DNA of 64,000 nucleotides from a virus. Below are positions 571-63,624 of this stretch, piece after piece (within the stretch, counting starts at the first letter, position 1; every line of letters begins with the position of its first letter). The translations under genes and the position numbers were made by a program. The stretch spans positions 1 through 64,000 of IMG/VR virus record IMGVR_UViG_3300042396_000450; one strand, written 5' to 3'. The notes beneath the pieces were generated by a model. That model was not told where the DNA came from. It saw only the letters and a program-made list of their open reading frames with translations, and did not search any database.

Positions 571-682
571 AACAAAAGCAAAACTATCACGTAAGAAAAA
601 AGGTAGGACAACGAAGCAATCTAATCAAGGCGCGACCTAACCTAAGTATAAATTTATACTAAGTACAAGACGCGCACTAAAT

Positions 683-712
683 AAGCTACCTAACATGAAC
701 TAGGTAGCTTTG
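683..712 (+). terminator. intrinsic terminator-like hairpin
   Basis: aagctaccta-N8-taggtagctt followed by only a short T run. Perfect 16-bp palindrome agtataaatttatact at 645-660 nearby. Confidence 0.45.
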
Positions 713-819
713 ATCTATTTACCTAAACTTACGTTCTGTATAATCATATGGTTTCCACTTTAATATCCATTATCTGTTATGGTGGATTAGTCCACGTTAT
801 TAACTTAAACTATACTAAC

Positions 820-2469
820 ATGACTTCCCGCGAACAATTAGAAAAAGAACTAGCTAACATAGAGAACAAGTTATATGAACTAGCGATACTAGATAATAAG
901 GATGAACAGTATGAATTAGAATCACTACTAGAAGAACAAAGTTACGTTCAAGCATATCAATCTAGTTACAGTTTCCTAGCTCATAGTTGGCAGACATTCA
1001 ATGGCGAAGTATTCCTACCAGCTAAACATCTACACGCAATAGCCGAACATCTAGATGCAACATTAACTGGTGAAATAAAACGACTTATAATTAACGTACC
1101 ACCTAGAACTGCTAAGTCAGCATTAGTAACTAAAGCATTTCCAGCCTATTGTTGGATAAGGCAGCCTCATCTTAAATTCGCCAACGTTAGTTATGGTTAT
1201 GGATTAGCAGAAGAAGGTAGTGTACATAGTCGTCAGATAATGCAATCTGATTGGTATAAGCGAGGTATGGCTACAGTATGGCGCGATATGGGTGCTACAC
1301 CATGGGAGTTCAGACGCGATAAGAATATGAAGAATGACTATGAGAATAATGCTAATGGTCGTAGATTCGCCACATCATGTCCTGAAGGTATCTTCACTGG
1401 TATTGGTGCAGACACAATTATAATTGACGACCCTGTTAAAGCTAACGCTGCATATAGTAAGAATACACTTGATAAAGTTAATCAATGGGTCAGCAATACT
1501 CTGATGTCGCGTTTAAACAACCAATCAGAAGGTGTTATCATCTTGGTTCAACAAAGGGTTAGTGAAATGGATATGACTGGTTTTTTCTTACAACAAGAAG
1601 GAGTTTGGGAACATCTATGTCTCCCAATGGAATATGAAGACACTCAGAGATACTGGACTCGCATTGGTTGGACTGATTGGCGCACTAATCAGAATGAATT
1701 ACTTGAACCAATTCGATTTCCGCGAGATGTGGTTGAGAGGCTCAAGAAGGACGAGGAATGGAGCTATGCTAGTCAATATCAACAACAACCAGTTCCGCTC
1801 GGTGGTGGACTTATTAGGCGTGAATGGTGGCAGAATTGGTACATACTTCCAACTCAGTTTGATGCAACTTGCATGGCATTCGATTTATCTATGAACGATA
1901 AGGAAACTAGCGATAATACGTCACTTATAGTTATGGGACGTAAGGATAACAAGTTCTACATTATTGACTTAGTGTATGGCAAAATGGATATACTTAAACA
2001 AGTAGAATCCATAATTGAGTTGTGTAATAAGTATCCGATGATAAGAACTAGGTTAATTGAACAACGTGCAAATGGAGATGCTGTAATTGCATTACTTAAA
2101 CGCACGATAACTGGACTTATACCACTCATAACTAAAGGTGATAAAGAACAACGTATCCTTAGTTGTGTGCCAGAAATTAATGCAGGTAACGTATTAGTTC
2201 CAGATGAGAATGTACATAGTTGGATTAAACCACTATTACTAGAAGCTACTATGTTTCCACGTGGTAAGAATGATGATGCTATTGATAGTATGCAGATGGC
2301 ACTTAATCATCTAGTTACGTCAAACATCGTTACTTATATGCCACTTCAAGTTATTACAGATAGTCCAGGTAATACAACTCGTGCTGAAATAAGAGAACAT
2401 ATAATGGATAGTAGTTATGGTGTTACAGTTAATGTGACTCGTAACTATATTAAAGGTTTATTTGAATAA
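820..2469 (+). CDS. terL: terminase large subunit
   Basis: Walker A-like INVPPRTAKS, Walker B IIIDDP, RNase H-type nuclease acidic motifs AFDLS and KNDDAIDS. Likely start MTSREQ at 820 (track start 748). Confidence 0.93.
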   Translation: MTSREQLEKELANIENKLYELAILDNKDEQYELESLLEEQSYVQAYQSSYSFLAHSWQTFNGEVFLPAKHLHAIAEHLDATLTGEIKRLIINVPPRTAKSALVTKAFPAYCWIRQPHLKFANVSYGYGLAEEGSVHSRQIMQSDWYKRGMATVWRDMGATPWEFRRDKNMKNDYENNANGRRFATSCPEGIFTGIGADTIIIDDPVKANAAYSKNTLDKVNQWVSNTLMSRLNNQSEGVIILVQQRVSEMDMTGFFLQQEGVWEHLCLPMEYEDTQRYWTRIGWTDWRTNQNELLEPIRFPRDVVERLKKDEEWSYASQYQQQPVPLGGGLIRREWWQNWYILPTQFDATCMAFDLSMNDKETSDNTSLIVMGRKDNKFYIIDLVYGKMDILKQVESIIELCNKYPMIRTRLIEQRANGDAVIALLKRTITGLIPLITKGDKEQRILSCVPEINAGNVLVPDENVHSWIKPLLLEATMFPRGKNDDAIDSMQMALNHLVTSNIVTYMPLQVITDSPGNTTRAEIREHIMDSSYGVTVNVTRNYIKGLFE

Positions 2470-2740
2470 CACTATGACTATTAATCAGATATTAAAGAAA
2501 GCATATACAGATCAATCTCATATAACTCTGTTTATAGACAACATCGAATATCAGTTTGATAATGCAATAGTAACTAGATTAACTAGAACTGAGATAACAT
2601 TCATGAGTCCGGCGTATCATCCTGATGGAACTTGTCTAATTGAATATACATTTGATAGAACATTAGTTATTGGAGTTGGTCGTATCGTAGCTAGATTAAA
2701 TGTAGATAGTAAGTTACCACCAGATGCGTTCATGTTATAA
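2462..2740 (+). CDS. hypothetical protein
   Basis: ORF coupled to terL, followed by a terminator. Confidence 0.6.
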   Translation: MNNTMTINQILKKAYTDQSHITLFIDNIEYQFDNAIVTRLTRTEITFMSPAYHPDGTCLIEYTFDRTLVIGVGRIVARLNVDSKLPPDAFML

Positions 2741-2755
2741 TAACGTTAGTGACCA

Positions 2756-61683: not shown

Positions 61684-61684
61684 T

Positions 61685-62770
61685 ATGCCAACTTTATTAG
61701 GACGTATTTTAATTAATCGTCAATTACCAAGCAAAGGTCAATTACTACAGGCTACAGCAAACAGAGCTAAATCTTTCATTAAAAATCCAATTAATACATT
61801 AAAAGAGGGATTAAATACTCATAAAACTGCTAATAATATCGCAAATAATCAAAGCACTATTATTGGTAGAACTTTAATCAATCGTCAATTACCCGGTAAA
61901 CGTGAGATACTTCAATCTGCGGGTAATGCAATTAAATCCGTTGTTAAAAATCCAATTCAAGCAGTTAAATCTGGATTAGCTAGAGATAAATTAGCTGTTC
62001 AAAAATGGGGATATCATACTGGACAAACTCGCGGACAAACAGCTATTAACCTTGGTAAACATATAGCTAGTGGAGTTTATAAAGGTGGAGGTAAGGATAT
62101 GCTAGTTAATACTGGTGGATTAATTGGCAGTATTAAGGGTGCAGCAATCGGCGGTAAAATAGGTTCACTAGCTGGAGATTGGGCTGGTGCAGCTACAGCA
62201 CGTAAAGGGTTAGACGATCTTGAAGCTACTCGTAACGCATTTAAGATTCGCAATAACCCTAACTTTCAGAAACAACCACTTAACGTTAAAGCTCGCATAC
62301 TAGCTAAACGCGCATCTGGTTATGCTAAGGCGAATAAGAAGGGATTTAATAGCGAACTTAAACAAGATACTATTGGTTGGGGTATTGGTAATAGTACTGC
62401 TGGTGCACTAGCTAATGTTGCACCAGCAGTACCATTTAAAGGTGCAGCAGTAGCAATGAAAACAACTAAACCTGTATATAAGGGTTTTCGTGTTGCTAAG
62501 AGAATAGCTACTACTAATACACCTAAGATTGGTAGAGTTAAAGCTCTACGTACTGGCATTACTAAGGGTGCTACATCTACTGGTAGAACTCTTCGACGTA
62601 ATCTAAATCCTGCTAGAGCAGTTAAAACAGGACTTAATAGAGAGAAGACTATGTATAACAGTGTTAATAATAGTCTATCTAAATTACCTCGTGTTCCAGC
62701 AGGAGTTAGTTTCAATAACTCTTATTTATTATGTGACTTTAATGTATCTACTATTAAATATAGGAGATAG
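61685..62770 (+). CDS. very basic glycine-rich protein, probable distant member of the internal-protein family
   Basis: Duplicated GR.LINRQLP.K...LQ...N..KS..KNPI, GxxxG runs, C-terminal SFNNSYLLCDF. Confidence 0.55.
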   Translation: MPTLLGRILINRQLPSKGQLLQATANRAKSFIKNPINTLKEGLNTHKTANNIANNQSTIIGRTLINRQLPGKREILQSAGNAIKSVVKNPIQAVKSGLARDKLAVQKWGYHTGQTRGQTAINLGKHIASGVYKGGGKDMLVNTGGLIGSIKGAAIGGKIGSLAGDWAGAATARKGLDDLEATRNAFKIRNNPNFQKQPLNVKARILAKRASGYAKANKKGFNSELKQDTIGWGIGNSTAGALANVAPAVPFKGAAVAMKTTKPVYKGFRVAKRIATTNTPKIGRVKALRTGITKGATSTGRTLRRNLNPARAVKTGLNREKTMYNSVNNSLSKLPRVPAGVSFNNSYLLCDFNVSTIKYRR

Positions 62771-62852
62771 ATGATGATAGGTGCTGCAATTAAAAACGTT
62801 AATATTACTGCAACACTATCACTACCTGGAATGTCATTAAAAAATAACTCAA

Positions 62853-63038
62853 TTAGTTGTCGTCGCATGGGAACACATCCTTACAATAAGTCCAATTAAG
62901 TACATTTTGTTCAATAACTTCTAAATCAGAGTCTATCCATCTGTAATCTATATATTTAGCTAATAGATATATTTTCTTACCGCTTTCATATTCTATTTGA
63001 ACTAAACATTCATCAGTTGTATCAGGTAACTTATTCAT
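62853..63038 (-). CDS. small hypothetical protein
   Basis: Coupled to the HD gene. Confidence 0.5.
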   Translation of the reverse strand: MNKLPDTTDECLVQIEYESGKKIYLLAKYIDYRWIDSDLEVIEQNVLNWTYCKDVFPCDDN

Positions 63039-63624
63039 CTTGCACTAATCCTCTCTTAATTCCTTCAGTAATACAATACTCAGTTATATAGCTGTATTCA
63101 GGTAACATCTCATCAATGTACACAGCTATCTTATTTCTAATTGATGAAGCACTAACTTGTTTCCACATCGGTGGAGCAGTACCATTAACTAGATGAGAAT
63201 AGACCAGCATACTACCAGCTAATTTATCAATAGCTTTAGCATACTTAGCTTCAATAGTTAACTGGTTCTTAAATTCATACCATAGATTAGAATACTCAGC
63301 TATGAGAGATGATTCAAGGTAAGAAAAAAGGTTGAGTGCCGCCAATTCCTCTTGAGTATCGTGTTCATCAGTATGGTCATCAAAGTTTACATCACCCGCA
63401 TTTATTTCACCTAGATCGTGTACTAGACATAACTTAATGATGTGCAGTAGTTGATCATTAGTTACTCGGTCATCTAGCATAGTTACACACATCATAACCA
63501 TAGTAAACGTATGTTCAGCTACATTCTCACGTCTACTACCAGTTACATTCATTATCTGACGTACTGTATCTACTGATGCGGCGGATTTGAGGATGAAGTC
63601 AATTGTCATAAGTTCCTTTAACAT
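63031..63624 (-). CDS. HD-domain phosphohydrolase (YfbR-like)
   Basis: RRENVAEHTF, LVHDLGE, AKAIDKL. Confidence 0.85.
   Translation of the reverse strand: MLKELMTIDFILKSAASVDTVRQIMNVTGSRRENVAEHTFTMVMMCVTMLDDRVTNDQLLHIIKLCLVHDLGEINAGDVNFDDHTDEHDTQEELAALNLFSYLESSLIAEYSNLWYEFKNQLTIEAKYAKAIDKLAGSMLVYSHLVNGTAPPMWKQVSASSIRNKIAVYIDEMLPEYSYITEYCITEGIKRGLVQDE

Follow-up and report, generated by a model that had tools for sequence, protein, structure and literature searches.

We found that the first 64 kb of IMG/VR virus record IMGVR_UViG_3300042396_000450 carry a short and strict DNA word, GTAAGAAA(A), which occurs far more often than expected and is under selection at the DNA level. The 64,000-nt stretch is referred to below as the window; it is the beginning of a single 111,623-bp record (32% GC, CheckV completeness 92%) that represents a tailed phage, called G000 in comparisons. 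The word belongs to the phage and is not a host-wide signal, and the simplest description of its arrangement is one evenly spaced row per strand. The explanation that we favour, though it falls somewhat short of an even chance, is that the copies are fixed priming sites at which G000's own primase recognises the template and starts synthesis. The strictness of the word, its Okazaki-scale spacing on each strand, its lineage specificity, its absence from hosts and its co-occurrence with a primase family make fixed priming sites the best explanation; we infer both that this primase reads the word and that priming is its function.

An earlier note, made from the letters of the window alone, had described an over-represented 11-mer, GTAAGAAAAAA, in 24 exact copies and four copies one A short. 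All 24 were present at the positions it gave, and its tally missed one minus-strand copy at 1581-1591, so that the window holds 25, where dinucleotide shuffles predict 0.21 (maximum 2). The four shorter copies were real as well, with 8-mer cores at 39474 (plus), 49281 (minus), 60229 (plus) and 61145 (minus). The over-representation stands and exceeds what had been claimed, but the 11-mer is not the unit, being the longest form of the shorter strict word. The 8-mer GTAAGAAA occurs 51 times in the window and 100 times in the whole genome (6-10 expected under Markov models of order 0-4), and the 9-mer GTAAGAAAA has 87 genome copies (1.3-3 expected under the same models). At each k from 8 to 13 the word was the top-ranking k-mer of the 111,623-bp genome. 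A sequence logo of the copies read R-GTAAGAAA-A-[A/C/T]-[A/T]-R-R, and single-mismatch variants occur only 0-1 times each, which makes the word strict. Runs of four or more A are about 2.5-fold under-represented in the rest of the genome unless GTAAG precedes them, and 33 of the 62 A6 runs follow GTAAG, that is, belong to the word.

Strict words are typical of modification enzymes, and the DNA might be modified specifically at the copies as a shield for the genome. We regard this as highly improbable, given that the approximately 65 proteins scanned, which are part of the gene set, included no methyltransferase or hypermodification enzyme, and that shielding would leave selection for many evenly spaced sites on each strand unexplained.

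Analysis of the intervals between copies showed that the roughly even spacing described in the earlier note holds for the 8/9-mer set, with a coefficient of variation (CV) of 0.73/0.69 against 0.98 for random placement (P≤0.0004), but not for the 11-mer subset genome-wide (CV 0.985, P=0.61). The latter has a 19-kb gap beyond the window, and the largest gap in the 8-mer set is 3.4 kb. Genome-wide, the word is divided equally between the strands (50 plus, 50 minus); within a strand the gaps average 2.2 kb and have CVs of 0.63 (P<0.0002) and 0.73 (P=0.011). The copies also appeared to alternate between strands, with 72 runs against 50.9 ± 5 expected. Simulated independent regular rows on the two strands recovered most of this alternation (P=0.04 for G000; P=0.22 for its relative G001, described below), which is therefore mostly due to each strand bearing its own evenly spaced row, and alternation was dropped as a separate property. 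A single convergent pair on opposite strands lies 32 nt apart (genome 87541 plus and 87573 minus).

To examine selection, we considered where the copies lie with respect to genes. Coding sequence makes up 91% of the genome, and the 100 copies comprise 46 in sense orientation (two frames), 35 in antisense orientation (three frames) and 19 in intergenic DNA. Synonymous-codon shuffling within genes, which left the 19 intergenic copies untouched, reduced the count from 100 to 34.8 ± 4.0. We also compared approximately 40 near-identical IMG/VR fragments, which cover 31 kb and 22 of the 9-mer copies. Within the copies, 5 of 198 positions were polymorphic against 9.8% elsewhere (Fisher P=6e-5); the corresponding values were 2 of 57 against 13.2% for third codon positions (P=0.015) and 0 of 27 against 9.4% for non-coding positions. 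The P values of these tests are generous, since the fragments share kinship. The earlier note had proposed DNA-level selection and had named two outcomes that would undo it, loss of the enrichment under codon-preserving shuffling and lack of conservation at silent positions; the enrichment survived the shuffle, silent sites proved conserved, and the proposal thus escaped both.

Its claim that orientation does not follow transcription likewise stands, because the copies are distributed over sense, antisense and intergenic positions in several frames; both orientations occur in both gene arms. An RNA-level or terminator role was rejected, as there is no orientation rule and the logo shows no conserved hairpin beside the T-run. 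When four genomes were pooled, sense and antisense copies stood at 189:130 and intergenic copies were enriched 2-2.6-fold.

A search of deposited phages yielded no close relative of G000, and IMG/VR metagenomes held many fragments 90-100% identical to it. More distant relatives carry words of their own. G001 (IMG/VR, 117,113 bp), which has 57 genes in common with G000 and a large terminase subunit (TerL) of 53% identity, carries the word AGRTAGAAAAA, with 137 copies of GRTAGAAAA (69 plus, 68 minus), significant regularity on each strand (P=0.002 and 0.007; mean gap 1.7 kb) and strand alternation at P=0.0015. Contig 247 (C247) of the Scytonema sp. NUACC26 assembly, also with 53% TerL identity, has the word TGGTAGAAAAA and 120 copies of GTAGAAAA (59 plus, 61 minus). 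The distantly related Pseudanabaena phage PA-SR01 has GCAGAAAAAG, with 61 copies of CAGAAAAA (31 plus, 30 minus), and in an 8.8-kb fragment with 73% capsid identity (L023) the top 7-mer was CGAAGAA (10 against 0.9 expected). The words are mutually exclusive among the compared genomes. Over 37 aligned orthologue pairs of G000 and G001, 1 of 21 mapped sites coincided (0.6 expected), which is about chance, and conservation of site positions between distant relatives was accordingly rejected: density and spacing are kept, individual positions are not.

The cyanobacterial HIP1 palindrome is likewise frequent in contig 247, at 114 copies. The first part of this contig (1-17000; L069) has 41% GC and is nearly free of the word, and the remaining 138 kb are word-rich with 37% GC; the first approximately 17 kb are either a prophage-host junction or a product of chimeric assembly.

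This turnover bears on the possibility that the copies are nick sites, at which a phage nickase would cut one strand per word for packaging, recombination or defence evasion, as is known from T5, tf and phiKMV-like phages. In favour of this, the word is both strict and asymmetric and is specific to the phage, its sequence changes between relatives in the way seen between tf and LUZ24-type phages (PMC3517423), and homing-type nucleases are present (GIY-YIG/HNH open reading frame [ORF], 20242-21543). Known nick motifs, however, are confined to a single strand, with 4-14 copies per genome at positions that relatives share (PMC3517423, PMC11780129), whereas G000 has 100 copies, equally divided between strands, whose positions turn over. 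Furthermore, opposite-strand copies lie as close as 32 nt in G000 and 25-36 nt in the GTCCGAAAT clade described below, so that nicking both members of such a pair would put the duplex at risk of breaking, and no nickase is tied to the word. Nick sites are thus an unlikely explanation.

We next compared the word with cellular genomes. Throughout the 11.3-Mb Scytonema assembly, GGTAGAAAAA stood at control level outside contig 247 and was approximately 80-fold denser inside it. GTAAGAAAA was at or below control in 151 of 151 cyanobacterial genomes sampled, although cyanobacteria may not be the host of G000. These background-level counts rule out a host-wide signal (Chi, uptake) for the Scytonema-assembly relative and for the 151 cyanobacteria. 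A Chi-like or nuclease-control signal, by which a correctly oriented word would attenuate a host or phage helicase-nuclease or switch it to recombination, the phage thereby marking both strands of its DNA, predicts orientation-specific, two-stranded, evenly spaced and mobile sites with drifting specificity, and all of these match. Mosaic breakpoints among variants in the population also lay within 100 nt of words more often than at random (15 against 8.8, P=0.017), a comparison confounded by gene boundaries. However, the lack of enrichment in the relative's Scytonema genome and in the 151 cyanobacteria argues against a host Chi, and the proteins scanned included no RecBCD/AddAB-like gene, only a small exonuclease, a Sak4-like ATPase, a single-stranded-DNA-binding protein (SSB) and a RuvC-like protein. 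We consider such a signal rather unlikely.

The earlier note had suggested the atypical HU protein or AT-hook-like basic modules as binders of the word, and had also listed packaging, ejection and late transcription as possible roles; no specific support was found for the latter three. Architectural or regulatory sites would be bound by a phage protein, such as the HU-like protein (2825-3127), an XRE or KilA-N protein or basic peptides, that organises, condenses or protects the genome. IHF-type proteins are able to recognise asymmetric, A-tract-containing sites, the word copies are enriched in intergenic DNA, and an HU-family gene scored above the Pfam cut-off in G000 and G001, with a homologue in C247. 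Against this, the word is far sharper than the degenerate consensus sites of HU and IHF, one-mismatch variants being nearly absent, and a protein that bends DNA irrespective of orientation would have no need of regular rows kept apart by strand. If a series of CV 0.73 were thinned by random orientation, a per-strand CV of approximately 0.87 would be expected, in contrast to the observed 0.63 and 0.73. In PA-SR01, which has a related word, the HU match stays below threshold, and like words are found in phages with fused primase-helicases and in the GTCCGAAAT clade, neither of which is known to share the HU gene. We therefore do not favour the proposal, and an architectural or regulatory role of this kind seems improbable; a strict word in a separate row per strand suggests an enzyme that reads strands rather than an architectural protein.

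A candidate for such an enzyme is encoded beyond the window. Pfam searches with Toprim_2, Zn_ribbon_DnaG and Prim-Pol returned nothing in G000, and those with Toprim_2 and Prim-Pol returned nothing in G001 or contig 247. A 277-aa primase with a zinc ribbon and a TOPRIM domain (P0128; minus strand, genome 76624-77457, L064:16624-17457) was instead located through a weak Toprim_2 match beside the PA-SR01 helicase homologue and then by synteny. Its gene overlaps the beginning of a DnaB/gp4-like helicase gene (genome 74892-76679) by 56 nt; primase and helicase also adjoin in G001 and the Scytonema-assembly phage, and homologues of P0128 occur in many IMG/VR phages. In P0128 and its homologues the CPxC...C...C zinc ribbon is invariant, and EGEK, PDxDxxG and, further on, two Asp residues are kept. 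The AlphaFold (AF2) model of P0128 had a pLDDT of 82.5, and its top Foldseek matches were the T7 gp4 primase domain, Twinkle, DnaG catalytic cores from four bacteria, the Aquifex primase comprising the zinc-binding domain (ZBD) and RPD, and the T4 primosome. From the motifs, the model, the structural matches and the adjacency to the helicase, we conclude that G000 encodes its own zinc-ribbon and TOPRIM primase of the T7 gp4/DnaG type.

Further replication and recombination genes of G000 include a split family-A-like polymerase, an exonuclease, an SSB-like protein and a Sak4-like ATPase. The polymerase (genome 71547-73774, minus strand) consists of two overlapping ORFs of 264 and 478 aa in G000 and is likewise split in the Scytonema-assembly phage, and in G001 it is a single ORF of 698 aa.

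The helicase itself might read the word through its C-terminal winged-helix-like part, in which case the copies would be helicase loading sites or dispersed secondary origins. It is the non-structural protein common to all four compared genomes, its gene overlaps that of the primase, and its model shows additional domains at both termini, among them a helix-helix-strand-strand unit. However, that model has a modest pLDDT of 66 and Foldseek matched its RecA core only; the consequences of helicase loading overlap those of priming-site reading, and we know of no precedent for 100 origins per 112 kb. We judge a role of this kind very unlikely.

To relate the word to the primase family, we scanned IMG/VR with the primase alignment, which fetched 33 loci in about 8-9 clades. 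Each of these clades has its own sharply over-represented word, typically with 7-16 copies of a 9-mer against 0.05-0.4 expected, whereas the leading 9-mer reached only 3-6 copies in each of 12 control loci, which had been retrieved by distant TerL similarity. L083, whose primase is 44% identical to that of G000, has the same word as G000 (GTAAGAAAAA). L085 and L086 (33% and 31% to G000, 50% to each other; GC 38.5% against 31.8%) share GTCCGAAATAAT, and L087 (30%) has AACGAAAGAA. Fused primase-helicases are encoded by L088 (24%; 724 aa; AGATGTCAATA), by the L093 clade of approximately 19 loci (20-21%; 736 aa; AACCCGAACAA, biased about 4:1 toward one strand) and by L096 (23%; 890 aa; CCCCCGAGTAC). 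The same word can thus persist at 44-50% primase identity and at 31.8% versus 38.5% GC. Comparison of the clade words with the 12 controls indicated that site specificity travels with the primase lineage, from which linked replication genes are inseparable here.

The full records of the GTCCGAAAT clade, whose word is unrelated to that of G000, are G153 and G154 (corresponding to L085 and L086); they hold 35 plus and 32 minus copies and 22 plus and 31 minus copies of GTCCGAAAT, respectively, against 0-1 for the reversed control. Regularity on each strand gave P values of 0.001-0.07 with mean gaps of 3-5.8 kb, and alternation gave P=0.007 and 0.024. This clade has 14 close convergent inverted pairs, 25-36 nt apart, and no divergent pairs; the convergent pairs are potential hairpins, by which both strands would gain a site at one spot.

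Under fixed priming by G000's own primase, the following course may be proposed. As the fork unwinds the DNA, the strand bearing the complement 5'-TTTTCTTAC-3' would serve as template, and the zinc-binding domain of the primase would read the 3' part of the word. The primer would start opposite a T of an embedded TTA or CTT triplet, and copying of the T-run would yield pppA(A)GAAAA..., a primer made of purines only. On this view the core AGAAAA, which the words share, corresponds to the primer, and the 5' bases, which vary between words, would form a recognition part that is not copied. Either strand could be the lagging-strand template, and each would keep a separate row with a site about every 2 kb, on the scale of Okazaki fragments. 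Selection would retain density and spacing, not positions, and the word would drift with the primase across clades.

Several features of the words and of known primases are consistent with this course. Intervals on each strand are on the Okazaki-fragment scale (2.2 kb in G000, 1.7 kb in G001 and 3-5.8 kb in G153/G154), although the lagging strand is not readable from sequence. With the register chosen by eye, the complements of the words consist of a T-run and CTA (G001, C247), CTG (PA-SR01) or CTTAC containing TTA (G000). Several words of other clades can be parsed as GTT, GTC or GTA sites giving pppAC primers; parsing by eye of this kind has little weight alone. Primases of the DnaG type begin opposite the central T of d(CTA), d(TTA) or d(CTG); the 3' base is not copied, and the primers made begin with pppAG (PMC2978363). 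T7 primase recognises 5'-(G/T)2GTC-3' together with a 3' flank read by its zinc-binding domain (PMC12839067; also PMC6136900, PMC2910064), and uses about 14-26 sites per genome, 1-6 kb apart (PMC12839067).

Several points weigh against priming as the function. The parsing into a triplet plus primer has some freedom of register. Known primases with a zinc-binding and a TOPRIM domain read 3-5 nt with loose flanks, not a strict word of 9-11 nt. Equal use of both strands genome-wide needs forks moving both ways everywhere. The excess of sense copies and the intergenic enrichment could indicate a transcription-linked role, although our own reading is that they reflect coding constraint. The word of C247 (120-165 copies, strand-balanced) showed no significant even spacing (P=0.48 and 0.08). 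Finally, the loci were fetched through the primase, so that the word could instead be read by the product of a linked gene, such as the helicase or the polymerase.

With a shade more reserve than for G000 alone, we propose that a large, varied group of phages with zinc-ribbon/TOPRIM primases may hard-code their lagging-strand starts, each lineage through a strict word of 8-12 nt that forms an evenly spaced row per strand, overrides codon choice and co-evolves with its primase. We found no paper in the literature that describes over-represented, evenly spaced primase words in phage genomes.

The individual copies in the window are given here by the span of the GTAAGAAA core, ordered by the longest word form at each copy. 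The 11-mer form on the plus strand occurs at 591-598 (11-mer 591-601; intergenic, ahead of TerL), 3404-3411 (upstream of the ORF at 3429), 16574-16581 (directly ahead of the ATG at 16587), 21611-21618 (one of two copies varying in relatives), 24232-24239, 24988-24995, 29296-29303, 35785-35792 (followed by GGCGCGAA), 36921-36928, 41233-41240, 47131-47138, 52140-52147, 57630-57637 and 63319-63326. On the minus strand, with the 11-mer span in brackets, it occurs at 1584-1591 (1581-1591; antisense within TerL), 5651-5658 (5648-5658; followed by GGCGGCG), 9576-9583 (9573-9583; followed by GGCGCGAT), 14069-14076 (14066-14076), 18712-18719 (18709-18719; at the start of the capsid gene and followed by GGCGCGAT), 26058-26065 (26055-26065; intergenic), 31703-31710 (31700-31710), 43011-43018 (43008-43018), 47462-47469 (47459-47469), 59287-59294 (59284-59294) and 60721-60728 (60718-60728). 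The 10-mer form is found at 39474-39481 (plus; ahead of the ATG at 39498), 49281-49288 (minus; the only copy that shares its codon position with a copy of G001's word), 60229-60236 (plus) and 61145-61152 (minus). Copies in the 9-mer form lie at 4757-4764, 6913-6920, 9692-9699, 11839-11846, 22307-22314, 23996-24003, 32246-32253 (ahead of the tape-measure gene), 42277-42284 and 54514-54521 on the plus strand, and at 7291-7298, 15425-15432, 18739-18746 (27 nt from the copy at 18712-18719), 34640-34647, 38461-38468, 48086-48093, 56701-56708 and 62973-62980 on the minus strand. The 8-mer alone is present at 8646-8653, 15918-15925 and 16292-16299 (plus) and at 39775-39782 and 43771-43778 (minus).

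A second dispersed word, GGCGCGAT(T), was also observed, with 11 copies of GGCGCGAT against 0.2 expected. Its GGCGCG part has 18 genome copies on both strands in this DNA of 32% GC, at 629, 1280, 9562, 13016, 18306, 18692, 25845, 29540, 35807, 45896, 47414, 55378 and 58656 in the window and at five more positions beyond it. The flank that the earlier note saw shared by some copies of the main word was recovered, with 4 of the 18 GGCGCG copies and the variant GGCGGCG at 5636 lying 5-30 nt downstream of that word. G001 has a GC-rich word as well, CGGCGCA (19 against 0.4 expected). These GC-rich second words and the HIP1 palindromes may be host-related words.

Gene landmarks in the window include TerL (748-2469), the adjoining HU-family gene identified with Pfam (2825-3127, minus strand), a KilA-N protein (3976-4884), the XRE protein (14424-14636), the major capsid protein (18685-19875), the GIY-YIG/HNH homing-endonuclease ORF, a tape-measure protein of 2141 aa (32283-38708) and a RuvC-like protein (55135-55620). 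A 336-aa ORF had no match in the protein atlas, and a 660-aa ORF matched DUF8224 there. On the minus strand at 13588-14636, opposite to the structural module in which they lie, the XRE-type helix-turn-helix gene (70 aa) and a 278-aa protein without a known family are kept at 42-61% identity in G001 and the Scytonema-assembly phage. Between the capsid ORF and the homing-endonuclease ORF, a 54-bp stretch (19887-19940) is 96-98% identical to Flavobacterium psychrophilum phages FpV1, 2, 20, 21 and FPSV, and is the sole host hint for G000. Beyond the window, at genome 77848-78576 and 84987-86902, G000 encodes a tRNA-repair set consisting of a Thg1-like 3'-5' polymerase, a polynucleotide kinase-phosphatase and a T4 Rnl1-type RNA ligase; a class II ribonucleotide reductase with cobalamin adenosyltransferase and ClpP/ClpS homologues are also encoded outside the window.

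If the copies are primase start sites, Okazaki-fragment initiation would be laid down in the sequence of the phage genome, making priming deterministic and not opportunistic, and primase specificity would be predictable from k-mer statistics alone. The strong DNA-level constraint would be explained, including the approximately 80 of 100 copies that lie within genes in five reading frames, and at least eight natural pairs of primase and word would become available for studying how zinc-binding domains read single-stranded DNA. Whatever the reader, evenly spaced per-strand rows of a lineage-specific word stand in several unrelated phage clades, and we found no description of such words in phages in the searchable literature.

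Comparison with known systems revealed partial likeness to each. Like the stoperators of cluster A mycobacteriophages, the word is asymmetric and scattered in dozens of copies over a phage genome, genes included. Stoperators are asymmetric sites of 13-14 bp, aligned with the direction of transcription and bound by a repressor; they keep one orientation relative to transcription, whereas the word does not. With Chi, KOPS and the uptake sequences DUS/USS it shares over-representation, orientation and selection for density rather than position, but those belong to cellular genomes, and words of the G000 type were confined to the phage in the cellular genomes tested. The nick motifs of T5, phiKMV-like and tf/Rembedalsseter-like phages are similarly short, asymmetric, phage-specific, enriched, located in and outside genes and changing between relatives; they are, however, unevenly spread, confined to one strand and kept in position, in contrast to the G000 word, which is evenly spaced, present on both strands and shifting.

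Two further parallels concern primases. In a parsing by eye that is compatible with bacterial DnaG, the complements hold CTA, CTG or TTA/CTT directly 3' of the T-run and would give a purine-starting primer; DnaG specificity, however, comprises three bases and is class-wide, whereas words of the G000 type fix 5-8 further bases that differ between close lineages. T7 primase has the same zinc-ribbon and TOPRIM architecture as P0128, which is a separate 277-aa protein and not fused to the helicase as in T7. The extended T7 sites, like the G000 word, are longer than a trinucleotide and form a limited set, which in T7 is spread at 1-6 kb; they include uncopied 3' template bases, as the word would. 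Unlike the T7 sites, the G000 word is strict over 8-11 nt, 10-60-fold over-represented, codon-overriding, evenly spaced on each strand and clade-specific.

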